From Candidatus Altimarinota bacterium (GTDB lineage: Bacteria; Patescibacteriota; Gracilibacteria; BD1-5; UBA2023), in assembly GCA_043770315.1 (NCBI GenBank), contig JAYVIJ010000040.1, positions 2,872 through 66,871 on the forward strand: a DNA stretch of 64,000 nucleotides. The letters are read 5' to 3'. Made by a program: the position numbers and the translations under genes. This document shows, piece after piece, positions 3,801-59,689 of this stretch (its first letter is position 1; each line of letters opens with the position of its first letter). The notes under the pieces were generated by a model. It had not been told where the DNA came from. It made no database searches and saw only the letters and a list, made by a program, of their open reading frames with translations.

Positions 3801-3911
3801 TCATATAGCCGTCACGAACAGGAATAACATCGAGGAAAAAAAGTCTACTCGATGTTTGAGCTTCTCGCTCGACTCAATCCACTGGAGAAATACTATTAGC
3901 CTCGCGATCAT
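897..3911 (-). CDS. Polytopic membrane protein with extracytoplasmic VIT and von Willebrand factor A domains (ITIH-like) and a C-terminal Ser-rich linker plus TM/basic tail
   Basis: One minus-strand frame joins track ORFs 3417..3788, 3048..3407, 2370..2906, 2094..2291, 1623..2060 and 1131..1397 through TGAs only. I walked every gap; the real stop is TAA 897-899 and an upstream in-frame TAG lies at 3960-3962. The N-terminal ~290 aa is multi-TM. The VIT-like block is VTYEFQN..EVIYSIALPDADAVMTDLRLGLN..VGVIAPRGAAAKVY. The VWA domain has a MIDAS-like IVFLDISKSAG and NIVILTDDD. The tail is ...GSSSISSGG-IVQYILVIVLFPLIAWYVL-RRKPK. The start ATG 3909-3911 is tentative. Confidence 0.85.
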
Positions 3912-30961: not shown

Positions 30962-31561
30962 TTATCTCTTAAATTTAAGAAGCTTCATGAGTGCTTCACG
31001 AGTTGCCATGATATCACCTTTGGCAGTATGAGCCTTATAATCAGTAATATGAAGTGTATCTGCGAGTCATCCAGGCTTGGAAAGACTTGTGGACTTAAAG
31101 GGGAGGGGAACTTTATTGTATCGTGCTATCGCGTTTGCTTGATTAGCGATTGATTTTGTATCGATGATATCATTTCAGAGTTTTTCATAGAGATTTGGTC
31201 TTCGAGCATTTGCGAAGACACTCGCAAGAAATGCGATATCAGCAGTGACAAATTGTCCTATAATAATCGGTTTTTTCTCGCCAGGGAAGTGTGTCTCCAT
31301 AAATCAGTCCCAGTATTCAGCAAATTCTTCATAAGATTTCCCCATAGCGATACGATCCAGTGTAAAGCCATTATATTCGAGTGCTTTTGGATCAATAATA
31401 ATATTATCAGGCGGGATTAGATCCATATAAAACTCTCAGATAATCTCAAATAAGTCATCGAGAACAATAGCTCAAACTTCAATCACACCATGTTGAAATG
31501 GATTGAGTCCTGTCATTTCGAGATCGAGGATGAGATAGGTACCAGGTTTAGTGTCAGCCAT
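30962..31561 (-). CDS. DnaQ-like DEDDh 3'-5' exonuclease
   Basis: MADTKPGTYLILDLEMTGLNPFQHGVIEV-G-AIVLDD.. (ExoI DxE), ..IIIGQFVTADIAFL (ExoII), ..YKAHTAKGDIMATRE (ExoIII H-x4-D). It is 600 nt, in frame, with five TGAs, and is absent from the standard-code track. Confidence 0.82.
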
Positions 31562-31667
31562 AGAAAATTATTTGCTTTTTTTATCGTACGCTCTATTCTC
31601 TTGCTATGTTTACGATGAAATATCGTATCTCAGTTTTAGAAAAAGTCAAAAAAATAATCTTTACATT

Positions 31668-32267
31668 ATGACAAAGCCATTTATCGTGCGAGATCCATAT
31701 TTCGAGAAAGCCAAGCAACTTGGTTATCGTGCGAGAAGCGCTTTCAAGCTTATCGAAATTCAAGAAAAATACAACTTAATTCAAAGCTGAATGTGTGTGC
31801 TTGATGTTGCAAGTGCCCCAGGGAGTTTTATTCAAGTGATATCAAAGATCATCGGAGAATCATGACGTATTATCGGAGTAGATATTCAGTCTATCAAATC
31901 TTTTGGTCAAAAAAATATTTCCTTTCTCAAGGCGAGTATATTTGATTATGATACCATACATGCATTTATACAAGATCGTGGTATCGAAAAATTTGATGTG
32001 ATCACTTCAGATATTGCACCAAATACCACAGGAATTACGGGGGTAGATCAGTATAGATCTATTGAATTGAATCTTGCTATACTCGATGTAGCGGATGAAT
32101 TTCTCATACCATGAGGAACAGTGATATTGAAAGTATTTGTTGGTGAAGATATCGAAGATCTTATTGCTCCAGTGAAGAGAAAATATGCGAAGCTCTCTCG
32201 TTTTAAGCCGAGAGCTTGTCGAGATCGGAGTTTTGAAGAGTATTTTATCTGTCAATGAAAAAAATAG
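31668..32267 (+). CDS. rlmE: 23S rRNA 2'-O-ribose methyltransferase RlmE/FtsJ
   Basis: DPYFEKAKQLGYRARSAFKLIEIQEKY, VLDVASAPGSF, ITSDIAPNTTGI, GTVILKVF, RFKPRACRDRSFEEYFIC. There are four in-frame TGAs and the stop is TAG 32265-32267. Confidence 0.9.
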
Positions 32268-32280
32268 TCTAACAAAGATA

Positions 32281-32317
32281 CCCCTATTCTTCTTACAAGA
32301 TTTTAGGGGATTTTTTT
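32281..32317 (+). terminator. Weak candidate intrinsic terminator after rlmE
   Basis: A 6-bp stem ccccta...tagggg with a 17-nt loop, followed by attttttt. Confidence 0.35.
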
Positions 32318-32431
32318 AGAAAGGAACTATGGGTAAGAGTTTTATAGATACTTCTATTGTCAATATGTTTATATTTGCTCGCATGAATAAATATTGTATA
32401 CTTATTTGCGTTTAATTATAAATCTTTTCTT

Positions 32432-34444
32432 ATGGAAAATACTTCTCCTAAGGCATGAATTTCTATTGATATGATCATATCGAAATTCGTACCCATTGTT
32501 TGAGTGACTCTTTTCGTTATAGGGCTCTGATATTTGATTTATAATAGTATTTGGGTAGATCTTGCTATGGAGGCAAAACTGGGACTTGGATTCTTCCTTT
32601 CTCTCGTTATCATAGGAGGTGCATTTTCTTTTTCGGAGAAACTTCGTTATTTTGCTGATGTGGTGATGGGGGGAGGCATACTTCTCCTTTATGGGACACT
32701 TATATATGGTTCACGTGCTACTGAAACAGCGAATGCCGCTATTCCAGAAATAGCAACACTTTTTTCTGCTGGTATTTTTACTCTCGTTTCAGCATATTTT
32801 GCTAAACTCAGACATTCTAAGGTTATATTGGCATTGGGTATCATAGGTGCTTATTTGACACCATTTGTCATTGGAAATGGTGGATGGGATAATCCGGGGA
32901 TATCATTCAATGCATATCTTATATATTTTGCTGCAGTCAATATGATCGTATTTCTTATGGGGAGAGAGATTGCTATACATGATCTCATACCACTGAATAT
33001 GCTTGGGCTTTTTTTCGGGACATCGACGCTCTATCATCTCTCTTATCTGAATAATGCTGATATATCTACGGGCTTTTTCGCTGGACCTGCATTTACCGCA
33101 GTCTTGATCGTAGTACTTCTTGGCTTTTGTATACTTGCTATATCACAGTCAGCAAGTAAGTTTGATCCAAAAGATGAGTTCCAGCTCACTATAGGATATT
33201 TCTTCCCTCTTGCTTGGGCTATACTCAATATAGAAAGACTAGCGGGAATATCACCATTGACTACCATGTGAGCCTACCTTGTTATAGCGGTACTCTACTT
33301 TCTTGCTTGGTATTATGTACGCAATCTTGCCTCTACTCGCACTCTCCATCTCGGTACATATGCAAGTGGTATTATAGCACTTATACTCGCTGTTACTTCA
33401 TATTTTCCAGAATTTACTGTCTATTCGAGCGTTCTTGTCGCCTATATAACACTTATATTTCTTGCAATATATATTTTTGATAATGCCAAATGGGAAAGAC
33501 TTTTTGCGGCTATGATATTTGCATGATTTGGAGGATTTCTCTCCCTATACCATATATATTTTGCCTCAACAGGATGATCTGAGTATCCAACACTTATGTC
33601 TATTATAGCACTCATGCCTGCTATTCTTATCTATCCAGTTTCATATTTTGCTTCTGAGACAAAAGCGAGTTTCCGCGCTCTTACACTACCATTTTCACTT
33701 ATTGCAAGCGTTTTAGCTCTCGTCATTCTTATAGGGAAGCTTCTTTCCACATTTGATTTTATGTTTGTGGTATTTCTCATACCTGCTTTCGTAGCAATAC
33801 TCTATATATATGTGACTGATATGGAGGCAGTAAAAAAATGATTTATTCTTCGATTTGCTCTTATATGGTGAGCATTTGCTGCTATCCTTCCATTTCTCTA
33901 TCTTATAGCAAATCTCGGCCCATGAGTAGCAGATAAAGAGAATTTCTTCATAGCTTGAGGTATATTTGCCAATGAAGATTTCATTAAGGCATTTATCTAT
34001 ATGATCATCCTATTTTTAGGACTTGGTATCAGTCGTCATCTTCAGAAGAAGACATGAAATAATAGGCCTTCCTTCATCCTCGTTATTTTCGCGTATTCCT
34101 TCCTTCTCCTTATTGTAAATTTTTGTATCATTACTCTTTGCAATGATCTTGGTATAGAATTTACGACATGATGACCTCGTGCTATCTGAACTACTCTCTG
34201 GTGGATTGCACTTGCTCTATTTATGCTTATGACGGGTATACATTATGGTCGTATATATCGAAGCGAGAAGCTCCTTTGACTTATCCTCCTTGCTCTTACT
34301 ATAGGAAAGATATGACTCTATGATATGGCAGCTATGAATACAGATAAGAAGATCATAGTATTTATGGTAGTAGGATGAGCTCTCATGATGTTTTCATATG
34401 TCCTTCAGGCGAAATGATATCTTCGAGAAAGTTCCGAGAAATAG
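32432..34444 (+). CDS. Large polytopic membrane protein, DUF2339-like
   Basis: One frame joins 32534..33271 and 33596..33841 and extends to TAG 34442-34444; all gaps were walked. There are about 18 hydrophobic helices. GAYLTPFVIG and the C-terminal LLALTIGKI-G-LYDMAAM...GGALMMFSYVLQ resemble DUF2339. Confidence 0.7.
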
Positions 34445-34468
34445 TTTATTTACTTTCCTCAATATATT

Positions 34469-35416
34469 ATGAGACGTCGTGGCATTAATATTCCTGAAGT
34501 TCCTCAAGGTCCATCTCTTTGGAAAAAAATATGGAATTTTTCTTCTTCGTTTTTCTGTCTAGTATGGAAAGTCATACTTTTCTTATGGTACTGGATACAA
34601 AGGATATTTCTTATAGTATTACTTATCATACTAACAGTATGACTTGCTTGGTGGCTCTCACAAAAACCATCAAATTATCGAGATTGGTCACTTTCTGAGT
34701 CTCTTCTTCAAGAGGTTTCATTCTCATGAAATATTGCCTTGATCAAGAACGTGAGAAATCATCTCTGGAGTACGGAGAAAAATTTTATTCCACAATACTA
34801 TGATGAAAGATATAATCTCGATGAGATCGAATCAGTACACTATATCATAGTACCATTTTCAGATCGTGTTGGACCTGCACATACTATGCTTTCATTTACT
34901 TTTTCAGGAGGTCAACATGTGGTGATTTCTGCTGAAGTAAGGAAAGAGCAAGGTGAATCATTTAGTGCGCTCAATGGTATTCTCAATCAGTTTGAGATGA
35001 TGTATGTAATAGGGAGTGAAAATGATCTTATAAAGTTGCGTACTCACTATAGAAAAAATGAGGTGTATATGTATCCTATTAATACACCAAAAGAGAAAAT
35101 ATCAGCACTTTTTCGTACTATGCTTATACGGGCTGATAAACTTTCCCGTGAACCAGAATTTTATAATACCCTCTGGAATAACTGTACGACAAGCATACTC
35201 CTTCATGCCAATGCTTTCCGTGAAGAGAAAATACCATGGACTATAAAAACGTTGCTCCCTTCCCATTCTGATAGTATCGTTTATAATGCATGACTTATAG
35301 ATACAGACCTATCACTTCCTGAAGCACGATCATATTATCGGATTGATGAAGTAGCTCGTAATACTGCTTCTACAGGTTTGACCTTTTCAGAAATAGTGAG
35401 AAAAGTACGAAAATAA
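34469..35416 (+). CDS. DUF4105 (Lnb N-terminal periplasmic domain-like) membrane-anchored protein
   Basis: N-terminal TM segment, then PSNYRDWSLSE...IKNVRNHLW, VHYIIVPFS...GPAHTMLSFTF, YNTLWNNCTTS. Stop is TAA 35414-35416. Confidence 0.7.
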
Positions 35417-35496
35417 GTTTTTCTTAATAGACAATATATCATTTTTTCAGAAACTTGGACGACTCCTAAAATTCATCTCCAATCTATAGCTTATCC

Positions 35497-36183
35497 ATGA
35501 AGTCTCCCTCCCTTAAAGAATCCTTCTCAATTTCATGTAATAATATTTCACTCTTTTATGGCGAAAAAAGTGTACTTATTTCACAAGATTTCTCACTCAA
35601 AGCTCATGAGAAAGTACTTATAGAGGGTCCATCAGGATCAGGGAAAACTTCATTCTTAAGATTGCTTTCAGGACTCATCCTTCCTGCTGAGTGATCGGTA
35701 CAATATATGCAGAAAAATGAAATTATTGATACAACTTCTTCAAGCTTTTCTGATTTTAGACGTGAAAATATCAGTATGACTTTTGCTGAACCACTATTTT
35801 TTGATACGCTTACCGTTGATCAGAATATTCTTTTTCCTCATATTTTTCTCAGTCTTCCATATCAAAAAAAGTGGAAAGATGATCTCATAGAGACTCTCGG
35901 TATTCGACCACTCCTTACTACGAAAATAGAAGCACTCTCTAGTGGCGAAAAAGATCGAGTCAATCTCATTCGAGCGCTTCTCTATGATCGTCCTATCCTT
36001 TTTCTCGATGAACCAGGTGCTCATATGGATCGACGACTTTTTTCGGTTTTTTTCGAACTTTTATGATCCTATCTCCTTCGCGTCAAGCCTATCACGGTGA
36101 TTATATCCCATTCAGATCGATTTATGTCACTGGTCGATCGTACCTATGTTTGTGAGAATGGTACTATCTTACCACGTATATAA
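35497..36183 (+). CDS. ABC transporter ATP-binding protein
   Basis: Walker A GPSGSGKTS, signature LSSGEKDRV, Walker B ILFLDEPGAHMD. There are two in-frame TGAs. TAA 36181-36183 abuts the next ATG. Confidence 0.9.
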
Positions 36184-37356
36184 ATGCTTTCTTTTATTTT
36201 TTCACATATTTTTTCACTCAAGATTCGAAGCCTGAGTATTATACTTGTGGTGACACTTCTGAGTTTTCTGATAGCTGTATTTGTCAGTATCTATAAAAAT
36301 ACTCTTTCAGCATTGGATTTTTATGGTCCTACAAATATCGATCCTACGAGAGTGACTTTCGTCTCACAGACGAGTATATTCGATATGTTTGCTAAGGATA
36401 GATGAGGGATTGATGCTACTATTCTTCGCCAAATTCAAAGTGATATGAGCTTTATTCGAACTCGATCATTTGCCTTTGTAGATACCAATACTATAGGATG
36501 ATTCGATATTTTTTCTTTCCATCTTGATACGGATGTTCCTGTATTTACACTTGATGATTCTCGGTGAGATCTTCGAGGATTTGGGATATCTCCTTCGATG
36601 ATTCACTACTATAATATCGAACTTGCTGGCTCTCATCCGATGTTTCCCACTCTGGATGAAGATTTTCTCGAATGAAAAAAAATATCTCTTGTCTTTGGTG
36701 CATCGAAAATATTTCAAGTATGAGGGACTCCCTCAACCCCCCTGGAATGAAGTATCGTTAGTGTAGATTCTGATTATCCTGGATTTGGAGTGGTAGGATC
36801 TCGCAGAGATATCGAAAAAAAACTCAGTGAGATTGGGGTTCTACCAAGACAGCCATATAAGGTCATCGCCTATATGAAAGACCTCAATGATCGAACGAAA
36901 GTTGAAGAGTCCTATAGCTCCTTTCTTCCAAAATTTGATAGTGATCTTATTGTGCAAAGACAAAAGCAATTTCGTGCATTATTTTTATCACTTTTTGGAG
37001 TTGGCACTATATTTGGGGGGATTATACTGATACTTTTGGTTCTTCTTTTTCTTGGGTACTTTAGAGAAAAAGAACCACTGTTTCGTCTTGCCCATGTTTA
37101 TGGTATTGCTTCTCCTTATAAGCAGGTTTTACTTTTCGCAGAGTCGACGCTCTTTCTTATTTTTGGTACCATTATCAGCATTCTTGTTATAGTGTTTTTT
37201 CAGAATTTTATTTTTTCGTACCTTTCAAGATTTTTCCATGAGCATGGAGTACTATTCCCACTTGTTTCTCTTTCTTCTTTTGAAATCTTTCTACTCATAA
37301 GTTTTTCTACTATCATCCTTATGTGAGTTATATTCTTTACTTCTCGAAAGAAATAA
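36184..37356 (+). CDS. ABC transporter permease (FtsX-like architecture)
   Basis: One frame joins 36184..36405 and 36790..37326 (gap walked). An N-terminal TM is followed by a ~200-aa extracytoplasmic loop and a C-terminal cluster of three TM helices. It is translationally coupled to the ATPase gene. Confidence 0.75.
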
Positions 37357-37401
37357 GGTATTCTGAAGGGAGAATTATTTATAGTTTCTATTTTCGTAAT
37401 T

Positions 37402-40023
37402 ATGCTTTCCCTTTTTCTCTCTTTGGTGCGATTTATACTCTCACTCCGATATAGACTCACTTTCAAAAATATTGAAGTTTTTGATGCACCTACTCCTGTC
37501 ATTGTATTCCCGAATCATCCAGCTCTCGCTGACCCGATGATCCTCACTTCCTATATAGCGAAGAAAAAGATCCTCTCACCAGTCATGACAGAAACGTATT
37601 TTCATACTCCTGGACTTGGACCTATCGTCCGAGCTCTTCGTACTGTTCCGGTAGGGGATATCGCAAAAGGATGAAGTATCGAGGATGTGAAAAAAGCATT
37701 TCAAGGCATTAAAACTGCTATGAAGAATGAGCAAAATATACTCATTTATCCATCAGGACATATTTATGTTCAACCATTTGAGCATATCGTCGGAAAGAAG
37801 ATGGCATATGAGATCGTAGGCATGCTCGATGGTGATACGAAGATTATCATTGCTCGTACTAAGTGACTTTGGGGAAGTATGTGGGGGAAGGCTTATACGG
37901 GGACTTCACCGAATCTTACGGCAGTACTCCTTCGTTCTTTCTGGCATATCATCGCAAATTTCATCTTCTTTATTCCGAAACGAGATATCACCATCGAGTT
38001 TTGTGATATGACGAGCAAGCTAAAAGAATGGCATACTCTTGGACTCGATACATTTAATCAAAAACTCCAAGACTACTATAATGAAGCAGGAAATGAGGAG
38101 TGCAGATTTATCCCTCATTATTTCTACTACGATGACACGAAGTGAAAAAAAGAACCACAGAGCATAGAAGGATCGATCGCTGAAGTGGGTGCATCGAGTG
38201 GTTTTTCTCTCGATGATATACCCAAAGATATCATCGATCAGGTGCGAGAAAAAGTCGCGACGATCAAGAAGATCGATATTAAAGATATCTCATTCAACAC
38301 GAATCTGATCCTCGATCTGCATGCTGATTCGCTTGATATGGCGGAATGTAAATCAGCGATCCAGTCCCTTTTTAAAGAAGCATCGAATCCACCTATAGGT
38401 CTTATCAAGACTGTATGAGATCTGGCTGCTATGGCAGTCGGAAAGCTCGAGTGAGAAGAGAAGCTTGCTTCGGTCTCATTTCTTTCCCCGAAAGAAGAGA
38501 AGATCGTATGTACCTATAGTCTATGAGATACTGTTTTGACGAGAATAAAGAAGAATTTTCAAGCAGAAAAATGAAAGCCATTTTGCTATGATGCTATGAC
38601 GGGGATGATGACGCGAGATGAATTCCTCCTTCGAGCGTATGTAATCTCGGGATATGTAAAGAGATTTTCTCCAGAGAGGATCGGGATTATGCTCCCAGCA
38701 CTTTCTGGCACCTCACTCCTCTTGGTTGGATCATATCTTGCAGGAAAACTTCCCGTTATGCTGAATTGGACTGTCTGAGAGAAATCTTTTGCTCACTGTA
38801 TGGAATTTGCAGGCCTGGATACGATACTTACGAGTCGGAAATTCTATGAAAAAATAAGTTCTCCATGGCTTGCGAAATTCGAAGGGAAAATGATCTTTAT
38901 CGAAGATATCATTCGAAATCTTTCTCCGATGACGAAAGTAATTGCTTTGATCAAAAAAACTTTATTTCTCCTTCCAAGCAGTACTGAAAGTGCTGTTATG
39001 CTCTTTACTTCAGGGAGTGAGTCTCTCCCGAAAGCAGTCGTCCTCTCCCATGAGAATATACTTTCTGATATTGACTGAGCCCTAAAACTTGTACCATTCC
39101 AGCAATATGAGACACTCCTTGGCTTTCTCCCGCCATTTCATAGTTTTGGATTTACTATCAATACGATATTTCCTCTCATTGCTCCCGTCCAAGTCGCATA
39201 TACTCCAGATCCCAATGATGCACGAACGATAGGAAAAATCCTTTTTCATACTGGGGCGAGTATCATTTCTGCGACGCCGACATTTCTGCGTATGATCCTT
39301 TCCAATAATTCCAAAGAAGTTCTCACATCGCTTCGATATGCTTTCATCGGTGCTGAGAAATGTGGAGATGATGTCTTCTCACTTTATAGAGAAAAATGTC
39401 CAAAATGATCTATTTTGGAGTGATATGGTATCACAGAATGTTCACCGATCGTTACGGTAAATACACTCGAAAAACAAAAAAAATGAAGTGCATGAAAATT
39501 CCTTCCTCATATACAGTATGCTATCCGTGCACTCGATGGAAAAGATAGAGTCAAACCTTGAGAGCAAGGGATGATATATGTGACTGGTCCAAGTATTTTT
39601 GCTGGATATCTTGATCCAAATATCGAAAGCCCATTCGATGATTTTGAAGGGAAAAAATGGTATAAGACCGGAGATCTTGGATATGCTGATAAGGATGGAT
39701 ATCTCTTTATCACGGGTCGACTCAAGCGATTTGTGAAGATTGCTGGGGAGATGATATCTCTTCCTTTTATCGAGACTATCCTGCTCGAAAAATATGGAAA
39801 TCTAGAATTGACGACTCTAGCTCTTGAAGCAAAAGAAGAAGATGGTATGGTGACTATAGTAGCATTTACCACTCTTGATCTTTCTGTCGATGAGTGCAAC
39901 GAATATATCCATACCCATGGAGCATCCAATCTCGTAAAGATCGCTCGTATCCAAAAAATAGATACCATACCGGTACTTGGTACGGGGAAAACGGACTACA
40001 AACAACTTAAATCTTTGATTTAG
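37402..40023 (+). CDS. aas: Aas-like trifunctional fusion: PlsC-type acyltransferase, carrier-protein (ACP) domain and acyl-ACP/acyl-CoA synthetase (AMP-binding) domain
   Basis: Six track ORFs share frame 1 (37402, 37879, 38185, 38596, 38800, 39571) and are joined by TGAs. Acyltransferase motifs are the HX4D FPNHPALADP and YPSGH. The carrier-domain motif is LDLHADSLDMAE (Ser codon 38329-38331). Adenylation motifs are MLFTSGSESLPKAVVLSHENI, E-G-YGITECSP, WYKTGDLG and GRLKRFVKIAGEMISL, very close to what I recall for E. coli Aas. Confidence 0.88.
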
Positions 40024-40028
40024 TATTT

Positions 40029-41327
40029 ATGAAACCGTATCACGCCCTTCTTCGATCTATAGATCGTGAATTCGAGAAAGCACTTGCTTCACTGAAATCT
40101 GATCCACTCTTTACTTCGAATAGAAAAGTCTATACAGCAGATGATAAGGCTCGTATTGCCCATCTATGGAAGGATATTGCTACACCATTTCGACGACTTC
40201 GGAAGATGATCCAGTCGATATATTGGAGATCATTTTTTACTTTTGGGAGTAAGAATAGTTTCGTCGTACAATATGCAGCAGTGACGACATATTATAATAT
40301 GGTATATGAACTCCAACAATCGTTCGGTGACCATGAGGAATTCTTTCGTCAATACCTCGATGACACATTTTCTGAGAATTATTCGACGATCGCTCGGTAT
40401 ATGTACCATATACGATTTTATTCGGTTCTACTCTATCCAAGAGAGTATTTTCTGACACTAAAAGATGAGGTAGATCGGAGTCTTGCTCCAATTTTTGAAA
40501 GACCAGAACGAGCATCTTGAACTATAGAAAAAAGATGGACGCATGATATGTCCAATATTTGGTACTATATCCGTTATAGGATAGGTCTTCTTTTTACTTG
40601 GATTGCGAAACATGGTGGTAGACTCATGCTTCATATACGCCTTTCTCGAAGAGAGCGATGACTTATTACACCTGAGAATGTAGAGAAGCTTCTTCCGATC
40701 ATGAAAGCTTGAGATATCCTTCTCACGAGAGGGAATTGGGCCGCTACGAATATGAATATTCCATGATTTTGGAAACATATGGCGATGTACATCTGAACCT
40801 GACTTTTCCTCAAGCAAAAGTATAATCTTTCATCGAAACTGAATCTCGAGGATGAGGAGCACTATATCATAGAAGCCATATGAGTATGAGTCCAGATCAT
40901 TTCTCTGAAAGCTCTTTGCGATCATAATGATTACCTTGGAGTGATCCGTCCAGCATTTTCTTCTGAGAAAAAGTCGCGAGTACTCACAAAGATTCTTTCT
41001 CTTATGGGGAAAGAGTATGACTACTCCTTTAATTATTATAGCGATGTGAACTATGTTTGTTCTACTCTTGTGACGAAGGTATACCTTCCAGAATCAGAGT
41101 TAGATGAATGACTTCATATTACCCTTACCCGTATAGGTATAAGTATCACTTATCCACCGAATGATATAGTGAAGAAAATGATTTCGGATAAGGAAAATGG
41201 TATTCATGAGCTTGATTTTATAGGGTTTATCGACTCGATCGACAGAAAAGGAGAGAATTTTCTCTCTACAGAAGAGGGCTTTATATCTACTGCAGTACGC
41301 CCAAAACTCAGTTTTTTCTTGCCATAA
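40029..41327 (+). CDS. YiiX/YaeF-like permuted papain-fold (C92/NlpC-P60 superfamily) hydrolase with an N-terminal helical extension
   Basis: Frame 0 was walked from 40029 to TAA 41325-41327. Blocks: KA-G(TGA)-DILLTRGNW, WKHMAMYI-G-T-G, YIIEAI-G-V-G-VQ, KEYDYSFNYYSDVNYVCSTLVTKVY (Cys nucleophile context). Confidence 0.7.
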
Positions 41328-41328
41328 T

Positions 41329-41892
41329 ATGCACTTTTTCGAGTACAAAAAGAAATCTCAAGAAATACTCCAAAAAGCTCATAAGAGGTATGATCATTTT
41401 TTTGAAGGTACAATTTCTGATGAAGGCTTAGAAGCACGATATCATCTTCTTGAATATCTCAGATGAACATTTCACTACATGTGAGGACTTGAGAAAGATG
41501 GAAATGGTACCCCACTTCCTCTTATTATAAAAGATAAATCATACTATTGGTCTATCTCACATTCAAAGAATTATATTGCCTATATCGTATCAGAAAACCC
41601 TGTAGGGATCGATATTGCTGAGCAAGAAATACGAGATATCGGACTTTTTGATATACACCATGCTTCTGAATATGGGATATTATGAGAGAAGAATTGGGCA
41701 GTATTTTATCTTCTCTGGACAGCAAAAGAAGCTATCCTCAAAGTTCATGGAGGAGCTCTCGACGATATGAAAGATATGAAGATATTACAAATGAGTGATG
41801 ATTCTATAAGTATTTTTGGATTTCATGAGAAAATATATACTATAAAGACATATAGAAAATGATCGATGATACTTTCTTATACGTATTCATAA
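41329..41892 (+). CDS. 4'-phosphopantetheinyl transferase (Sfp/AcpS superfamily)
   Basis: WSISHSKNYIAYIVSENPVGIDIAE and FYLLWTAKEAILKVHG. The start lies 1 nt after the preceding stop. There are four in-frame TGAs, so it is absent from the standard-code track. Confidence 0.8.
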
Positions 41893-41893
41893 G

Positions 41894-42700
41894 ATGCTGA
41901 AATTCTTTCTTTCCATTATTTTTATAGCGATCACTGCCTATATCTTGCTGTGCATTTTTATGTACTTCACCCAAGCAAGGCTTCTTTTTTTCCCACCCAA
42001 AGTGCAGTCTTCACACTATGAAAAAATATCTCAAAATATCAATCTCGAGAATATCCAAATAGCGACAAAAGATGGAGATACGCTCGATGGATGGAAACAG
42101 AGAGCCACAAATAAAAAGTATGTTCTTTTATACTTCGGATGAAATGCAGAAGAGGCATCATATTTCGTCGAGAAGTACTCCTATAGAGATACCAATATCA
42201 TAAGTTTTAATTATAGATCGTATGGTCGAAGTACAGGGAAAGCCTCAGAGAAGATCATGTTTTCTGATGCAATACAAATATATGATATTCTCGTAAATGA
42301 CTATCATATTGATCCGAAAAATATAATCCTCATGGGAAGAAGTCTCGGCACAGGTGTTGCTACATATCTCTCAAGTCAAAGATCTGTAAAGAAAGTTATC
42401 CTTGTAACTCCCTATGATTCTGTCGAATCTCTCGCAAAGGAGTGATATCCGTTTATTCCTGTATCACTCCTTCTTAGGAACAAGTTTGACTCACTCTCTT
42501 ATGCATCTATCCGATCGAATCGACTTCTTTGTATCTATGGGGGTAAAGATACTACAATCCCAAATCATCATACAGAAAATCTTCTCAATTACTGGAATGG
42601 AAGTATACAGAAAATCTTCATCCCTGAGGCGACCCATGAAGATATCCTTGATAAAGCTGAGCTTATAGATGGGATCGACCAATTTATTTCACCAACGTAA
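41894..42700 (+). CDS. Membrane-anchored alpha/beta hydrolase (lysophospholipase/esterase-like)
   Basis: N-terminal TM, the oxyanion-hole region LLYF-G-G-NAEE, the nucleophile elbow GRSLG, and late D..H candidates (GGKDTTIP..., ATHEDI). The start lies 1 nt after the PPTase stop. Confidence 0.8.
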
Positions 42701-42709
42701 TATTTTTAT

Positions 42710-43870
42710 ATGAATCGTTCACTTTTCTCACTTCTCGGACTCATCGCTCTCTGGAGTCTGTTCTATGCTGGAGTGAAATACTTCTTCTGGTGAGTCTATG
42801 CAGATGACTTTGCTCCGACTCTTGAGGGGATATCAGGCTATGTGCTTCTCTGAAGTATGATAGCGTATATCATCGGGGGTCCTCTCTATGCCCGCTATAG
42901 TGAGCGTATTATGCTGTTTATGGCTCTTGCTATAGGTATGATATTTTTCATTTGAGCTCTACTTTTACCACCAGTATCTCCAGTATTTTTTAATATATCT
43001 ATGGCGGGTATCGGGCTTGCATATTCGCTCTATGTCATAGGAAAAAATACCCTTATCGGCCGTGAGATAGCAACCTCGACCCTCTGATCTGCCACGATAT
43101 GAGCATTTACGACAGTTGTATTTATCGTATTTCTCGTTTTAGGTACTGTTATAGGATCTAAGATCTGAGAGACTGAAGGTCTTCTCTTCGCATGAATATG
43201 CTACTTCATAGGGCTTCTCGTATTCGTAGGAGGAGATCTTTTCATAACAGAGACGAGAAGGGAGACTTCTGTATTTCGAGCTTCGTGGGCTCTCTATAAG
43301 AAGCTCTTCTCTCGATATGCAATCTTTATGATTGGACTCGCATGCTTCTGGCAGATATCGGTCGAAGCTTCGCAGGTCGCGATCAACTATTCTAAGGATA
43401 TATTCGATACGTCGAACTCTGTTTCTTCACTTCTGCTCCTTTTCTCCTCTGTAGGTGCTATAATCTGAAATATTATCTCAGTGAAATTTTCCCATATGCG
43501 ATTGCGGGCGTTTTCGATTTTTTCTTCGATTTTTATCATTATAATATTCTGATTTTCGAGTATTCTCGATCTTGCAAAAAATCTTGATCAATATGCTATA
43601 GTCCAAGGTCTTGCATTTCTTGTGTGACTTTTCTTTGGAGGAGCGGTAAACCTCTGCGAATCCTATTTCTATAGCCTTCTTGGGAATGATGAAGATAAAG
43701 ACTATACTTCTGCTCTCTATGGTTTTACGTTATCTTTTGTATGAGCGATTATGATGTTTATATCAGAAAAAATCCTCCATACAGGTTCATATGGAGGTAT
43801 TAGTATATTTCTCTGATTTCTTGCCATCATAGCTCTCTATGGAGGAAGAAGGGGTATAGAAATGAAATAA
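42710..43870 (+). CDS. 12-TM MFS-type transporter (LplT-like size and position)
   Basis: The entire frame was walked from ATG 42710 to TAA 43868-43870; it contains 14 in-frame TGAs and no TAA/TAG. It is a hydrophobic 386-aa protein and is absent from the standard-code track. Confidence 0.7.
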
Positions 43871-43883
43871 TTTGATCGAACTG

Positions 43884-43910
43884 AAAAAATCCACTTTAGG
43901 TGGATTTTTT
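43884..43910 (+). terminator. Intrinsic terminator closing the lipid operon
   Basis: aaaaaatccac-tttag-gtggatttttt, located 14 nt after the stop. Confidence 0.8.
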
Positions 43911-43935
43911 CGTATTTTCACTATAATACAACACT

Positions 43936-44424
43936 ATGTCACTCATATCTATCGTCGATGAAGATGATAACATCATCGACTATGTCGAGCGAGATCTCCG
44001 TCGTGATGATCAGATATATCGTGTCTCAGGACTCTGGATCACGAATCCTGCCTGAGAGATACTTATCGCACAAAGACACAAAAATAAAAAACACTATCCA
44101 CTTCTCTGGTGACCTGCCGTCGCAGGAACCGTCGAAAAAGGAGAAACCTACCAGGAAAATATCATCAAAGAAGCCGAGGAAGAACTTGGCATCAAGGATA
44201 TAAGACCAATCCTCTGACCCAAGACCGAGACAACATCAAGATATATCCACTTCACGCAGTGGTTCCTCCTCACGATCGATAGAGAGCTTGATGAATTCAT
44301 ACTTCAAGAAGACGAAGTCGAATCACTCAAGTGGATATCTTCCGAATCTCTCAGAAAAGAATACGCAGAAAGCCCTGATAATTTTGTCCCATCATTTGCT
44401 CTTATACTCCCACTTTTTCTCTAA
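43936..44424 (+). CDS. NUDIX hydrolase
   Basis: Nudix box W-G(TGA)[27 protein letters not shown]. It is 489 nt, in frame, with stop TAA 44422-44424. Confidence 0.8.
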
Positions 44425-44450
44425 ATTTATTCACTTTCAACTTTACTTCT

Positions 44451-46346
44451 ATGATACTCGCATCTCAGATCCGTTCACAGTATCTCGAATTTTTCAAGAG
44501 CAAAAATCATGCTATCATTCCATCAGCACCACTTGTGCCAGAGAATGATCCATCTGTGCTCTTCAACACTGCGGGGATGCAACCTCTCGTCCCATATCTC
44601 CTCGGTGAGCCACATCCACTCGGGAAGAGGCTCGCTGATGTACAGAAGTGTGTCCGTACTGGGGATATCGATGATGTCGGTGATGATACGCACCTTACAT
44701 TTTTCGAGATGCTCGGAAACTGGTCACTTGGTGACTACTTTAAACGTGAATCCATTGAAATGAGTTGGGAATTCCTCACTTCGAAATCTTGGCTTGCCCT
44801 CGATCCTGAGATGCTAAGTGTGACAGTATTTGCCGGAGATGAGAATGCACCGCTCGATACAGAATCCATAGAAATCTGGAAGAATGTTTGGATGGCGAAT
44901 GGTCTCGATTTTGGAGATGAGCGCATTGCTCGACTTCCTGCTGAAGATAACTGGTGGGCAGCAGGTCCTACAGGTCCATGTGGACCTGATACTGAGATAT
45001 TCTACTGGATGGGAGAGGGGAAGCCACCGAAGTGATCGAATAAATGAACCGACTCAAAAATGTGGATGGAAATCTGGAACAATGTCTTCATGCAGTATAA
45101 TCGTCTCGATGCAGCTACTCTAGAAAATCTCCCAGCACAGTGTGTCGATACTGGTATGGGTATAGAAAGGTGTACTGTAACACTCAATGGTATGAAGAGT
45201 GTTTATGAGACTGATTGTTTCGCTTCAGTACTCTTGAAAATCCGTGAAATCGTAGGAGAATCGAACTATGGTGAACGCTCTGCTCGTATCATCGCAGACC
45301 ATATCCGTACTGCGACACATATGATCTCTGATGGTGTCACTCCAAAAAATGTGGATCAAGGATATATCCTTCGTCGTCTCATCCGTCGTGCTATCCGTGA
45401 GGCATACAAGATGGGATATGAGAAGCCGTTCGCGAGTGAAATCGCGAGTATATATATCGAACAATTTTCAGGAATCTATACGAGCGTGAAAGACAATGCA
45501 GAGAAGATAAAAAATGAACTCAATATTGAAGAGGGAAAATTCGCAAAGACTCTCAAGAATGGAATTAAGGAATTTGAAAAACAATTTCCAGATTTTCTTA
45601 TGAAGAATGGTATTACGGTTGACGGAAGAATGGTAGACCCATCTCAATACCAAATTCATTCAGCAACTGTTTTTAGTGAATTAGTTGGTGAAATGCTTGG
45701 TTTTGAGCTCTTTCAAACATTTGGATTTCCAGGTGAAATGACACTAGAAATTATTACAGATTGGATTGAATGAAAGAGTATTAAGTTTAATAAGGCTGAT
45801 TTTCTGGTTGGATTTAATAGGAAATTTAAAGAGCACCAGGAGCTCTCTCGTACGGCTGCAGCAGGGAAGTTCAAGTGAGGACTTGCTGATGATGGAGCAG
45901 AGACCACGGCCCTCCACTCAGCGTGTCACCTGATGCTTGAGTGACTTCGTCAGATCCTCGGAACCCATGTCCACCAAGCAGGGTCCAATATCACGGCCGA
46001 ACGTCTTCGATTTGACTTCACACATCCTGAGAAGATGACCCCTGAGCAGATCGCGAAGGTAGAGGAGTTCGTAAACAAAGGTATATCTTCAGATCTCACC
46101 GTGACGATCTCGAATATGGATAAAAAAGAAGCACAAGAAGCATGAGTATCTGGATCGTTCTGGGAGAAATATCCTGATATCGTGAAGGTGTACTCTATGG
46201 TCGGTGCTGATGGTGTCGTCTACTCTCGTGAGCTCTGTGGTGGTCCTCATGTCGAGACATCTAAGGATATGGGGAAGTTCAAGATTGTGAAAGAAGAGTC
46301 GAGTAGTGCGGGCGTGAGACGTATTAAGGCAGTGTTGGATAAGTAG
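44451..46346 (+). CDS. alaS: Alanine--tRNA ligase, compact form (631 aa)
   Basis: One frame joins 44451..45035 and 45060..45773 and extends to TAG 46344-46346. Motifs: [57 protein letters not shown], then the editing-domain metal ligands [10 protein letters not shown] and ELCGGPHV and ..AGVRRIKAV at the very C-terminus. Confidence 0.92.
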
Positions 46347-47137: not shown

Positions 47138-47389
47138 ATGCAAACCCCTAATTCTTGATCTCACTGGCGACACTATAAATCTACTGGATGAGATAATCAT
47201 TCTTATGAAGTCATCGGCATTGCTCGACACTCCGAAACACACGAAGATATGGTGGTATATCGACCACTCTATACTCCTGAAGAGTGAAATTGGGTCTATT
47301 GATATGATTTTGCTGTTCGTCCACTCTCACTTTGGTATGATATCGTCGAATACAAAGGAAAACAGGTTCAGAGATTTACCCAGATATAA
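47138..47389 (+). CDS. DUF1653 family protein
   Basis: HWRHYKSTG-G-DNHSYEVIGIARHSETHEDMVVYRPLY....VRPLSLWYDIVEYKGKQVQRFTQI matches the DUF1653 pattern I recall (YRHYKG..Y.V...A.HSET.E..VVY). Confidence 0.75.
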
Positions 47390-47391
47390 TT

Positions 47392-48027
47392 ATGTACTAC
47401 TTATCATCCATTCCTGAAAATATCACTCCGAGTACGAAATGTATCATTATGCTCCATGGTGTATGATCGAATGAGCAAGATCTTTTTGCTCTCTCTGAGC
47501 GATTCTCAGAAGATACTCTGATTCTATCACTTCAGTGACCATTCTCTCTCGGGTGAGGAAGGTATGCATGGTATAAGGTCGATTTCTCTACAGGGAAGCC
47601 AATATATGCTCCTCAAGATGTAGAACTTTGATATGATGAGATACTTTCATGTATCCAAGAAGTCAGAGATAAGTATGATATAAAGAGTGAAAATATCTTT
47701 CTTATGGGATTCAGTCAAGGGGCCATCATGTCGTACTATACTCTCTGGAAAAATCCAGAGACAATATGAGGGATTATCGCTCTTTCTGGGAGATTACTTA
47801 ACGAGATTGATGTAAGCCATATTCAAGAAGAGAAATACGTAGGAAAACGAGTATTTATCGGACATGGTGAACTCGATAGCGTGATACCATTCTCTGCAAG
47901 TGAGACGACTCAGGAGTTTATAAAAAAACTTGGTATCATCCCAGATTTCCACTCATATCCTACTTCACATACGATCATAGAGAGAGAAATATGAGATATT
48001 ATCAATTTTTTGATAACTATTAAGTAA
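47392..48027 (+). CDS. Phospholipase/carboxylesterase family serine hydrolase
   Basis: IIMLHGV-G-SNEQDL, the nucleophile elbow FLMGFSQGA, and FIGHGELDSVIP...H. There are six in-frame TGAs and the stop is TAA 48025-48027. Confidence 0.8.
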
Positions 48028-51054: not shown

Positions 51055-51744
51055 ATGGAATCATGATTTTATTCATCAGGGAATGAGGAGATATACTTTG
51101 AAAAGATGATATCTCCTGTAAATAAAATTACCACTCTTGTTCTTCATGGTGCATGACAGTCAGATAGTACAAGAACTCTAGCTTTTCGAGAATCGCTTCT
51201 TGAGGAATGAATATCTACTCTTGCAATTGATTTTTCTGGTCATGGAAGAAGTACATATAATACACCATGATCTATACAAAAACGGATTCAAGAAGCACAA
51301 GATGCTATTTGATTACTTGATTCTTCGGATTGAATTACGCTTATAGGACTTAGTATGAGTGGAGAAGTGTGTATTCGACTTACACAAATAGCAAATATTA
51401 GTCATTTAGTTTTATTAGCCCCGGGCATATATCATCATAAAGCAATCAATATTCCTTTTGGTGATGAATTTTCAAGCCTTATACGTCAAAATGAAAGTTG
51501 GAAAGAAACAAAGATTATGGATATACTTATTTGATTTATAGGCCTTATACTTCTCATTACACCCCAAAATGATAGGACTATACCTGAATGAATAAATCAA
51601 ATTATTATGGATTCCGCACCAAATTCTACAAAGAAAAGAATTGTAATAGAATGAGCTCCACATATGATATGAAAATGGATGAATGAAAATCCAAATAGAG
51701 CTAAAATAATTGCAAAACAAGTTAAAGAGTATCTAATTTTGTAA
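51055..51744 (+). CDS. Alpha/beta hydrolase
   Basis: LVLHGA-G-QSDS, DFSGHGRS, the nucleophile elbow LIGLSMSGE, and a late ..-G-APHM. There are ten in-frame TGAs, so it is absent from the standard-code track. Confidence 0.7.
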
Positions 51745-58672: not shown

Positions 58673-59689
58673 ATGAGAATACTCATCTACTTTTTTTCAT
58701 TTTTCTTGCTTACTGCTTGTACGGGGGAATATTGGGATCATATAAAGAGAGAGCATGCCGATATAGTATCTGCATCTGGATCTATTTGAAGTGTCTCGGG
58801 TGTATTATATTCTTTACCTGATAAGAAGGTTTTGGAAGATCTCATTAGGACTCTTGCGGGTGCAAAGTCACGTATATGGCTTGAAACGTATACTTGGACA
58901 GAAAAAGAAACCTTAGAGGCAATCATCCAAGCAAAAAAAAGATGAGTTGATGTTCGTGTCGTCCTTGAGGGGAATGTATATCGTACTCCATGGATCAATA
59001 ATAGCTCAATAAAGCAACTTCAAGATGCAGGTATAGATTTTTCTTATGCTGATAATCATCGATATACCTTCACTCATATAAAAACTTGGGTTATCGATGA
59101 TAGATGGTGTATAAGTACAGGAAATTGGTCATTTACGAGTTTTACAAAGAATCGCGAGTTTATCTATTGTAGTTTTGATGTATCTCTTTTGCATGATATT
59201 GAAGAAATTATCCAGTCAGACTTTAAGCATGAGCGTCCATATTTCCCAGATGGCCTTGATTCGCGCATTGGTCTTTCCCCTGAGAATATTCGTCCTTGGC
59301 TTATCTCACATATTCAGAAAGCTAAAAATGATATTATCGTATATAACCAAAGTATTACTGATCAAGAGATTCTTACACTTCTCAAAGAGAAAGCTGATAG
59401 ATGAATCATCGTAAAACTTTGCCAAGCAGATCATGAGGATGAAGAGTCAAAAACTGGAGAACTTATTTTTCCCAAGAATATTGAGATAAAGACGAGCAAA
59501 AAGCCCTATCTTCATGCGAAAGTATTTCTTATAGATGGTGCGAAAGTGATTCTTTGAAGTGCTAATATGACACAAAATGCTCTTGAAAATAACAGGGAAA
59601 TTCTCATAAATTTAGGAGAAAATAAAGAATTTTATGAAACTATTTTTTCTTTCTACGACAAAGACTGCTATTCGTCATCTGGAAAGTAA
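58673..59689 (+). CDS. Phospholipase D superfamily lipoprotein (two HKD motifs)
   Basis: Lipobox FFLLTAC. HKD motif 1 is FTHIKTWVIDDRWCISTGNW. HKD motif 2 is YLHAKVFLIDGAKVIL-G-SANM. The frame includes 59189..59404. Confidence 0.85.

Follow-up and report, generated by a model that had tools for sequence, protein, structure and literature searches.

A composite gene cluster with an Aas/LplT-like core as a candidate system for the maintenance and salvage of envelope lipids in Gracilibacteria

Closest described systems and the locus in its own genetic code

In E. coli, lysophospholipid is recycled by the products of two genes in the same orientation, LplT (b2835), a major facilitator superfamily (MFS) protein that flips the lysolipid, and Aas (b2836), in which a PlsC-type acyltransferase and an acyl-acyl carrier protein (ACP) synthetase are joined in one protein that uses free holo-ACP. 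LplT and Aas form a physical complex via the transferase domain, LplT-Aas fusions have been noted and are uncharacterised, and the system is described as identified in Gram-negative bacteria only (PMC11416262). In this study, we analysed a stretch of 64,000 nt (hereafter the window; contig JAYVIJ010000040.1 of assembly GCA_043770315.1, positions 2,872 to 66,871) from a Candidatus Altimarinota bacterium, a member of the Candidate Phyla Radiation (CPR), and found nine genes, g1 to g9, all on the plus strand at 32432-43870, among which a similar enzyme and an MFS gene lie together. With slightly better than even confidence, we propose that they make up a composite system by which envelope lipids are maintained and salvaged, with three neighbouring modules: a DUF2339-DUF4105 pair (g1-g2), a type VII ATP-binding cassette (ABC) pair (g3-g4) and an Aas/LplT-like core (g5-g9), the last of which is the best-supported part.

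Like LplT/Aas, the core has its acyltransferase and acyl-ACP synthetase on a single polypeptide and an MFS gene that points the same way, and its proposed chemistry would be the same, namely lysolipid flip, carrier-bound fatty-acid activation and re-acylation. However, g5 has its own carrier domain of ~65 amino acids (aa) in an insert of ~140 aa, whereas Aas depends on the free carrier (PMC11416262), and the window locus has an adjacent phosphopantetheinyl transferase (PPTase) gene and interleaved hydrolase genes. The MFS gene g9 lies downstream of the enzyme and is too divergent for the LplT model, whereas LplT lies upstream; and the bacterium that carries the locus belongs to CPR and has no reported lipid A pathway, unlike the Gram-negative hosts of LplT-Aas. 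The MFS-acyltransferase-synthetase fusions of NF006386/PRK08633 (acyl-[ACP]--phospholipid O-acyltransferase) are the best-scoring model for both the synthetase and the acyltransferase parts of g5, but the window encodes its MFS on its own, four genes after g5. A host-dependent counterpart is known from Chlamydia trachomatis, where host fatty acids are activated by the Aas-type synthetase AasC (CT776) alongside the lysophospholipid acyltransferase LpaT (CT775) (PMC5693948); the AasC model NF004971 is the third-best match of g5 (2e-96). In Chlamydia the two activities reside on separate proteins, and a complete type II fatty acid synthesis and free ACP are kept (PMC6167442), whereas in g5 they are fused together with a carrier in a lineage reported to be without ACP.

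For the upstream genes, the closest described system is Arc3 of P. aeruginosa (Arc3A, PA5114; Arc3B, PA5113). DUF2339 is the Arc3A family, and Arc3A is the main defence of P. aeruginosa against the phospholipase A (PLA) toxin Tle3; it blocks the accumulation of lysophosphatidylethanolamine (lyso-PE) and monolyso-cardiolipin and acts additively with Aas, by a mechanism left unexplained there (PMC8926400). Because aas has been reported beside arc3 genes in many bacteria (PMC8926400), the DUF2339-Aas linkage is already known. The window shares with Arc3 a near-full-length DUF2339 protein with many transmembrane (TM) segments and an aas-like gene close by. The partner of g1, however, is a DUF4105 permuted NlpC/P60 protein and not Arc3B (PF13163), a domain without a Pfam match among g1-g9 and reported as restricted to Gram-negative phyla (PMC8926400). 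In addition, Arc3A is described with 35 TM segments, in contrast to ~18 in g1, and Gracilibacteria presumably lack Gac/Rsm regulation, given the restriction to Gammaproteobacteria stated in the same work (PMC8926400).

The remaining resemblances concern single genes. g2 shares with Bacteroides Lnb the Lnb_N domain with its His and Cys, and g6 shares with YiiX the C92 domain and Cys motif but has an extra N-terminal region of ~220 aa. Permuted NlpC/P60 lipid enzymes, including YiiX, LRAT/PLAAT, TseH and Tox-Act1, are phospholipases or acyltransferases that act on lipid acyl chains (PMC12994826, PMC11573676). As in FtsEX, LolCDE and MacB, the permease g4 has a predicted four-TM topology, a large extracytoplasmic domain, the corresponding predicted fold and an abutting ATPase gene; unlike FtsX and MacB, it has no sequence-level family match and belongs to a tiny family (11 homolog clusters in a database of 5.8 billion proteins). 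Every component is of a known kind, and the tri-domain enzyme is common in non-CPR bacteria. What is new is, first, a PPTase linkage specific to CPR, implying that the carrier chemistry is self-sufficient, and, second, a conserved Arc3A-DUF4105 pairing. No published description of this locus in CPR was found in the literature searched, which is not proof of absence.

The nine-gene cluster is valid only when read in genetic code 25 (UGA = Gly), the code used by Gracilibacteria and Absconditabacteria. Genes in the window were called both with table 11 and with TGA read as sense. Table 11 gave fragments only, the longest open reading frame (ORF) of the whole window being 274 aa; with TGA as sense, the longest ORF reached 1967 aa and the genes formed a compact map. 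g5 carries 14 in-frame TGA codons in 873 residues, and Gly stands opposite in standard-code Bacteroidota homologs: TGA positions 155, 674 and 698 are Gly in 15/15 of them and position 459 in 14/15, and no conserved Trp was found opposite the g5 TGA codons in this alignment. Since UGA falls opposite invariant Gly and never opposite a conserved Trp, code 4 (UGA = Trp) is ruled out and the code is therefore code 25. The named closest database relatives are Candidatus Gracilibacteria or Altimarinota. Database entry P0001 is 98% identical to g5, a difference that fits the 14 TGA codons, and both P0001 and P0168 appear to be window proteins translated with another reading of TGA.

An earlier note, made from the letters alone, had listed nine same-strand genes closed by a strong terminator, with gaps of 5, 1, 1 and 9 nt among the last five. 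Under code 25 the genes stand where the note had put them (Table 1), the four gaps are exact (the whole series from g1 to g9 is 24, 80, 0, 45, 5, 1, 1 and 9 nt), and the hairpin at the end of the cluster has the longest stem of all plus-strand sites in a scan of 31500-44500. The domain calls of the note are borne out, although g4 and the carrier domain of g5 needed support beyond Pfam. For g1, we take the ATG at 32432 as the right start, because the resulting length agrees with homologs of 669 and 672 aa. A promoter scan found 37 sites against 44.5 expected, which is not above chance and is uninformative; one of its promoter-like matches lies inside the 80-nt gap upstream of g3.

Table 1. Positions in the window of the nine genes, read in code 25, and of the closing hairpin
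Feature	Position	Strand	Assignment
g1	32432-34444	+	DUF2339 / Arc3A-family polytopic membrane protein, 670 aa
g2	34469-35416	+	DUF4105 / Lnb_N-domain protein, N-terminal membrane anchor, 315 aa
g3	35497-36183	+	ABC ATPase
g4	36184-37356	+	predicted lineage-restricted type VII ABC permease (MacB/LolCE/FtsX fold)
g5	37402-40023	+	tri-domain protein: acyltransferase / carrier domain / Aas-type acyl-ACP synthetase
g6	40029-41327	+	YiiX/C92-family permuted papain-like enzyme
g7	41329-41892	+	Sfp-type 4'-phosphopantetheinyl transferase
g8	41894-42700	+	alpha/beta hydrolase, N-terminal anchor, GRSLG nucleophile elbow
g9	42710-43870	+	divergent MFS transporter
Intrinsic-terminator-like hairpin	43882-43912	+	14-pair stem followed by a T run, closes the cluster

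The tri-domain enzyme and the genes linked to it

In g5, a PlsC-type acyltransferase (residues ~1-245) is followed by a carrier domain (279-342, nt 38236-38427; predicted phosphopantetheine attachment at Ser310) and an Aas-type acyl-ACP synthetase (~383-873). Pfam recognised the Acyltransferase (33.2 bits, 5e-8) and AMP-binding (160.5 bits) domains, and its PP-binding model matched residues 279-342 at 17.9 bits, under the cutoff of 20.8. Despite this weak match, the carrier domain is confirmed, because the isolated region matches ACP models (1e-5) and the serine of its DSL motif (S310) is invariant in 85/85 members of the fusion family. The same invariance holds for H39, T536-S537-G538 and K544, and D44 is Asp in 80 and Glu in 5 of these members and K863 is kept in 84 of them. 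With NHPALAD as the HX4D motif of the acyltransferase, all catalytic motifs of g5 are intact.

BLASTP aligned the synthetase half of g5 with E. coli Aas at 30% identity across 498 aa (8e-69). The best NCBIfam models for g5 are of Aas type (NF006386, 1e-122; AasC; Aas NF005959, 2e-75 over residues 407-872), and fatty-acyl-CoA ligase models score far lower. When searched in isolation, the acyltransferase domain is matched best by the acyltransferase segment of NF006386 (1e-9) and then by PlsC. These matches bear out the earlier description of g5 as an Aas-like fusion with a built-in carrier. It departs from the two-domain, free-holo-ACP architecture of Aas in having that internal carrier, and we regard it as an enzyme that probably works like Aas but stands outside the Aas equivalog.

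When one genome per species was scanned, at least 589 relatives of the tri-domain fusion came to light, with full-length matches (31-45% identity) in Bacteroidota, Chlorobiota, Planctomycetota, Chlamydiota, Verrucomicrobiota, Lentisphaerota, Cloacimonadota, Bdellovibrionota, Acidobacteriota and Proteobacteria; the fusion is therefore not an invention of CPR. In a neighbour-joining tree without support values, the code-25 fusion sequences form one clade; Bacteroidota/Chlorobiota, with two further CPR sequences among them, make up its sister group. This arrangement argues for long residence in the lineage and not for recent transfer. An origin from a mobile element or by recent horizontal transfer is unlikely, given the housekeeping flanks and, in the same unsupported tree, the single code-25 clade.

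The neighbourhoods of the fusion were surveyed in 86 loci (14 CPR and 72 non-CPR; the 80 best-scoring and 6 fetched by hand, not a random sample), with ORFs called in the appropriate code and iterated profiles of g1-g9. A PPTase gene adjoins the fusion in 10/14 CPR loci, in contrast to 0/72 non-CPR loci. This linkage is the clearest CPR-specific feature of the locus; it implies that organisms in which ACP is reportedly missing have a self-contained carrier system, and it fits organisms without a housekeeping AcpS. In the window the PPTase is g7, which matches Pfam ACPS (PF01648; 4e-9, 36.9 bits, cutoff 25), and its best NCBIfam models, AusB (5e-11), AcpT (1e-6) and HetI (1e-4), are all Sfp-type and all under cutoff. 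g7 is presumably dedicated to the carrier domain of g5.

The MFS gene is linked to the enzyme more widely. An MFS is adjacent or fused to the tri-domain enzyme in 27/86 loci (8/14 CPR, 19/72 non-CPR), and eight loci encode single proteins of ~1300 aa in the order MFS-acyltransferase-ACP-synthetase. The enzyme-linked MFS proteins fall into two subtypes, one that matches the LplT model and one of g9 type. Standard-code neighbours match LplT NF008397 (5e-31) and the MFS part of NF006386 (2e-75), and neighbours in Bacteroidota and Gammaproteobacteria match LplT at 5e-31 and 1e-24. The g9 type occurs in CPR and, fused to the enzyme, in Cloacimonadota and Victivallales, and g9 alone retrieves the MFS part of these fusions at 5e-10 to 2e-7 (phmmer). 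In hhalign, 356 columns of a g9-type profile aligned with a profile of the LplT type (98.2% probability, E=3e-14). With single E. coli MFS sequences as targets, a comparison that separates families poorly, the g9-type profile scored 28.3 for LplT, 24.8 for MdfA, 24.3 for EntS, 18.0 for LacY and 17.0 for GlpT. g9 itself reached 30.9 bits for Pfam MFS_1, under the cutoff of 33.4, and was not significantly similar to E. coli LplT in pairwise comparison (BLASTP, phmmer); the g9-type profile found no MFS among PDB sequences, only spurious opsin and SecE matches. From these sequence relationships, g9 would be the positional and fusion counterpart of LplT. The other MFS gene of the window (13112-14770, minus strand) was not recruited by the g9 profile and serves as a negative control; it encodes 552 aa with an acidic N-terminal extension, matches MFS_1 at 2e-19 and is unrelated to the g9 type.

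Between the enzyme and the MFS lie, besides the PPTase, two hydrolase-like genes. g6 has a Peptidase_C92 domain (PF05708; 64.7 bits, cutoff 27, 1e-17) at residues 226-357, and its Cys motif YVCSTLV aligns with QYCSEVV of E. coli YiiX (2if6). It is directly downstream of the fusion in six Gracilibacteria genomes, the window included. Its N-terminal ~220 aa (40029-40700) gave no family match; this region is kept in the Gracilibacteria orthologs (432-433 aa) and is absent from the 206-aa C92 protein encoded close to the Carboxylicivirga fusion. Without a clear TM helix, g6 is probably cytoplasmic or peripheral. g8 matches Abhydrolase_1 (32.6 bits, 9e-8), retains GRSLG and has one N-terminal TM-like segment, and its closest solved relative is a fragment of MARTX RtxA (6imp, 4e-12), probably the ABH domain. 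The MARTX ABH domain is a phospholipase A1 specific for phosphatidylinositol 3-phosphate (PMC4640098), and g8 is predicted to be lipase- or phospholipase A1-like. Among the relatives, g8 was found only in the closest, L085 and L086, and is absent from L087 and L095. The earlier view that the locus holds lipid-type hydrolases agrees with the nearest relative of g8 and with the permuted NlpC/P60 class of g2 and g6 (PMC12994826).

Three other hydrolase genes of possible lipid type lie further downstream in the window. An Abhydrolase_2 protein of the phospholipase/carboxylesterase family (47284-48027, plus strand, 1e-29) is encoded 3.4 kb downstream, past a NUDIX gene and the alanyl-tRNA synthetase (AlaRS) gene; a gene of this family is also downstream of AlaRS in L085 and L087, and the protein may be a lysophospholipase tied to the function of the locus. 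An alpha/beta hydrolase (Hydrolase_4/Abhydrolase_6) is found at 51055-51744 (plus strand). The third, a phospholipase D (PLD)-family protein at 58673-59689 (plus strand), has two PLDc_2 domains (2e-38) and a lipobox-like N-terminal signal, FFLLTAC; a lipoprotein phospholipase D is one possibility for it, a cardiolipin-synthase-like head-group enzyme another. Together with g8, the window holds four candidates for lipid-type hydrolases besides the permuted NlpC/P60 pair.

Upstream pairs and the modular make-up of the locus

The first gene, g1, matches Pfam PF10101 over model positions 8-657 of 659 (4e-24, 85.7 bits, cutoff 33.6) and has at least 18 TM-like segments by a crude hydropathy count. 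Its neighbour g2 matches Lnb_N/DUF4105 (PF13387; 4e-34, 118 bits), and a His (H138, in GPAHTML), C239 and N237 (both in WNNCTTS) are invariant in 25 homologs. The g2 family gave 409 matches, and all the named ones are Gracilibacteria. An AlphaFold2 model of the family, made on the proxy P0132 (pLDDT 87.4), has a single long N-terminal helix (17-64) and then a globular domain. Confident as the model is, Foldseek found no significant PDB fold match for it, and the fold class of g2 therefore rests on Pfam and the literature. Its only weak Foldseek matches with target TM-scores of 0.28-0.49 (probability ~0.3) are Aichivirus 2A and human CLN5, which we take to be permuted NlpC/P60-like lipid acyl enzymes; TseH (6v98), a cited structural neighbour of Lnb, was not in the top 50. 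We consider g2 a putative outward-facing Cys-dependent lipid acyltransferase or phospholipase A. The DUF2339-DUF4105 genes are a conserved adjacent pair in Gracilibacteria even without the Aas-like module (L093, 7978-10972; L094, 7940-10954), and this pairing is a lead on the mechanism of Arc3A.

The second pair consists of an ABC ATPase, g3 (ABC_tran, 7e-25, 88.6 bits), whose stop codon abuts the start of g4 (TAAATG). Among NCBIfam models, g3 matches DevA (1e-26), LolD (7e-24) and FtsE (4e-23), all under cutoff, and other ABC ATPase models score similarly. g4 gave no match in Pfam, NCBIfam or PDB sequences, FtsX and MacB_PCD included, and a 12-sequence profile of it found nothing in PDB at E<=10. 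It has 1+3 TM-like segments with a loop of ~230 aa. An AlphaFold2 model of a 94%-identical proxy, P0121, was of moderate confidence (pLDDT 68.5), and almost all of its top 50 Foldseek matches are of MacB, LolC/E, FtsX, HrtB and BceB type (probability 1.0, E down to 8e-8, TM-scores 0.42-0.54). At the fold level, the model identifies g4 as a probable MacB/LolCE/FtsX-type (type VII) permease. The FtsX-like nature claimed for it earlier thus stands for fold and topology but has no counterpart in its sequence. To our knowledge, characterised members of this class are extractors or mechanotransmitters, and we know of no importers among them. In Gram-positive bacteria, NlpC/P60 or CHAP hydrolases that act outside the cytoplasm, CwlO, RipC and PcsB among them, are under the control of FtsEX homologs, and the position of g3/g4 beside g2, a member of the NlpC/P60 superfamily, parallels this arrangement.

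In three relatives, a protein of 1262-1380 aa without a Pfam match is encoded between Lnb_N and the ABC ATPase (L087, 4036-8094; L086, 3859-8067; L095, 11262-15050). It is missing from the window and from the 88%-identical relative L085, and may be an extracytoplasmic partner of the type VII ABC pair.

The gene string recurs, with variations, in relatives whose fusion protein is 70-88% identical, so the cluster is more than a chance assembly. L087 has the order DUF2339-Lnb_N-[1348 aa]-ABC-permease-fusion-C92-PPTase-MFS, and L086 has the same order plus g8. On a contig of 1.29 Mb, the slot between rplL and alaS is occupied by [fusion-C92-PPTase-MFS]-[DUF2339-Lnb_N]-[1262 aa-ABC-permease], in which the three modules are permuted yet together, the ABC pair coming after Lnb_N in either arrangement. 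Another Gracilibacterium, L093, has FtsJ-DUF2339-Lnb_N-AlaRS in this slot of the chromosome, with modules 2 and 3 absent, and L094 has the DUF2339-Lnb_N pair alone in an unrelated context. Because this pair can stand alone, the locus is a composite and therefore comprises three units: DUF2339-DUF4105 (module 1), the type VII ABC pair with or without the giant protein (module 2) and the Aas/LplT-like core (module 3). Conservation of gene order, which the earlier note had put forward as a check, holds among the 70-88% relatives but not strictly, since L085 lacks DUF2339 at this position and the 1.29-Mb contig has its modules permuted; and the idea that the pairing is embedded in one dedicated operon fails on the separability of the modules in L093 and L094.

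Proposed function and its alternatives

To the question of how CPR bacteria, or Patescibacteria, form membranes in the absence of lipid synthesis, this locus contributes concrete candidates: an Aas-type enzyme with a carrier domain of its own, a PPTase that adjoins it in CPR genomes only, and an LplT-like transporter. A closed Gracilibacteria genome and Vampirococcus have been reported to be without lipid synthesis (PMC6851277, PMC8080830), in agreement with what the earlier note had assumed for CPR in general. In another study, lysolipids were enriched in cell fractions of CPR, whose genomes there yielded no ACP-dependent enzymes (PMC7242380). Since fatty-acid, ACP and phospholipid synthesis are reportedly missing from the lineage, it must obtain fatty acids, and probably lysolipids, from outside. 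In the composite system that we propose, g9 would act as LplT does in E. coli and flip lysophospholipid of the outer leaflet to the inner one. The C-terminal domain of g5 would adenylate a free fatty acid and load it on its own carrier, phosphopantetheinylated at Ser310 after priming by g7, and the N-terminal HX4D acyltransferase would move the acyl chain to the lysolipid to give a diacyl phospholipid. g6, with its YiiX-like Cys, and g8, with its phospholipase A1-like Ser, may be accessory acyl hydrolases or transferases that supply substrates or edit the carrier. At the outer face, the Arc3A-type g1 and g2 would deal with lysolipids or acyl transfer, and g3-g4 would act extracytoplasmically and may power or regulate module 1. 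The sequences show the order and domains of the genes, their intact catalytic motifs, the homology of g5 to Aas, the linkage and fusion of the MFS, the PPTase linkage of CPR and the modular make-up; the substrates, the direction of transport, the link to a host and the roles of g1, g2, g3, g4, g6 and g8 are what we infer. If the organism makes no fatty acids, repair and scavenging share one chemistry here and differ only in the source of the lysolipid, and the sequence alone fits the two equally well.

Several findings weigh against the proposal as a whole. The tri-domain family is known from sequences, and as a whole protein g5 reaches 254 bits for NF005959 (cutoff 886) and 408 bits for NF006386 (cutoff 1221). 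Its acyltransferase domain has no significant pairwise match to that of E. coli Aas (BLASTP, phmmer). The likening of g9 to LplT in the earlier note is sustained by near-full-length profile homology and by linkage and fusion, but g9 matched no NCBIfam model at E<=0.01, that for LplT (NF008397) included, and its margin over the control sequences MdfA and EntS is narrow (28.3 vs 24.8 and 24.3) in a comparison that, as noted above, separates families poorly. The note had also counted the ABC transporter as part of an uptake module; judging from the modelled fold, the pair is probably not of importer type. Linkage of modules 1 and 2 to the fusion does not extend beyond one Gracilibacteria clade and Carboxylicivirga: C92 and DUF2339 occur near it only in that clade and in two Carboxylicivirga species, where they were found only with mixed seeds, so that their co-occurrence elsewhere is possibly under-counted, and Lnb_N, the ABC pair and g8 occur near it only in the closest Gracilibacteria relatives. 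The lack of DUF2339 in L085, the bare pair in the corresponding slot of L093 and the non-random choice of the 86 loci count on the same side. Finally, in non-CPR phyla the fusion cannot substitute for missing lipid synthesis.

This last point leads to the possibility, which we rate as real though on the unlikely side, that the locus serves self-protection of the Arc3 kind, in which a predatory or epibiotic Gracilibacterium limits the build-up of lysophospholipid from phospholipases, its own or an attacker's, and any gain of nutrient is incidental. The fusion is widespread in phyla where salvage as the only source of lipid is unneeded, the DUF2339-Lnb_N pair is a conserved stand-alone unit, Arc3A is the main Tle3 defence of P. 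aeruginosa, additive with Aas and neighboured by it (PMC8926400), and LplT/Aas shields E. coli from phospholipase attack (PMC11416262). Self-protection, however, leaves the dedicated, CPR-only PPTase unexplained, and no toxin or immunity genes were seen in the annotated flanks. Without fatty-acid synthesis, re-acylation would still need exogenous fatty acid, so that this explanation differs from salvage more in emphasis than in mechanism. In a more far-reaching explanation, the three modules would be one lipid-harvesting machine and the sole route of membrane biogenesis in these Gracilibacteria, which we hold to be doubtful. In such a machine, the ABC pair would drive the DUF4105 enzyme, and the Arc3A-like protein would present or regulate it, as it strips acyl chains or lysolipids at the cell surface from membranes of prey or of the environment. 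The lysolipids would be imported by the LplT-like MFS, and the PPTase-primed, ACP-tethered Aas-like enzyme would rebuild diacyl lipids. If true, this would be the first concrete pathway for CPR membranes without fatty-acid, ACP and phospholipid synthesis, and would give the enigmatic Arc3A family a biochemical partner and context.

Two further explanations place the lipid chemistry in the service of another product. One is lipoprotein maturation and trafficking, in which g2 would be an Lnb-type N-acyltransferase, g3/g4 a LolCDE-like extractor, and the Aas/LplT-like genes would recycle the lysophospholipid formed. Lnb is the lipoprotein N-acyltransferase of Bacteroides (PMC11573676), DUF4105 genes are repeatedly displaced by Lnt in conserved contexts (PMC12994826), and Lnt is listed among the sources of lyso-PE recycled by LplT/Aas (PMC11416262). 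The window itself contributes the Lnb_N match of g2 (4e-34) with its conserved His and Cys, LolC/E among the top fold matches of the g4 model, and the lipobox-like FFLLTAC of the PLD-family protein at 58673-59689, which suggests that lipoproteins are made. We nevertheless consider this explanation improbable. g2 has one N-terminal helix and 315 aa, in contrast to the five TM helices and 398 aa of Lnb (PMC11573676); the g4 model matches MacB, FtsX, HrtB and BceB as well as LolCE; and LolA/LolB, Lgt and Lsp are not among the annotated window genes. Gracilibacteria are described without a lipid A pathway and so probably have no outer membrane (PMC6851277); Lol-type sorting would therefore have no outer-membrane destination. 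The other explanation, a small biosynthetic cluster whose specialised acylated product might be an N-acyl amino-acid lipid or resemble a lipopeptide, seems to us very improbable; its product would be made by the adenylation, carrier and acyltransferase domains with the PPTase and thioesterase-like hydrolases, and exported by the MFS and the ABC pair. Adenylation, carrier, PPTase, hydrolase and exporters are indeed the classic composition of a carrier-dependent cluster, type VII ABC systems, to which the fold match of g4 points, are typically exporters or extractors, and the adenylation domain of g5 also matches nonribosomal peptide synthetase (NRPS) adenylation domains (~1e-23). Yet the best adenylation models are those of Aas and AasC, 30 to 80 orders of magnitude ahead of CoA-ligase and NRPS-type ones, the acyltransferase is best matched by an Aas-type segment and then by PlsC, and the MFS partners in other phyla are LplT-type. 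Moreover, Pfam found no condensation, ketosynthase or tailoring domains among g1-g9, and the tri-domain family is a single conserved protein across many phyla, unlike variable biosynthetic clusters.

Two large ORFs stand apart from the locus. A membrane protein of 1004 aa with a VIT domain is encoded at 897-3911 (minus strand), and a giant unannotated ORF of 1967 aa lies at 5391-11294 (plus strand); related predators of CPR have been described with giant surface proteins (PMC8080830).

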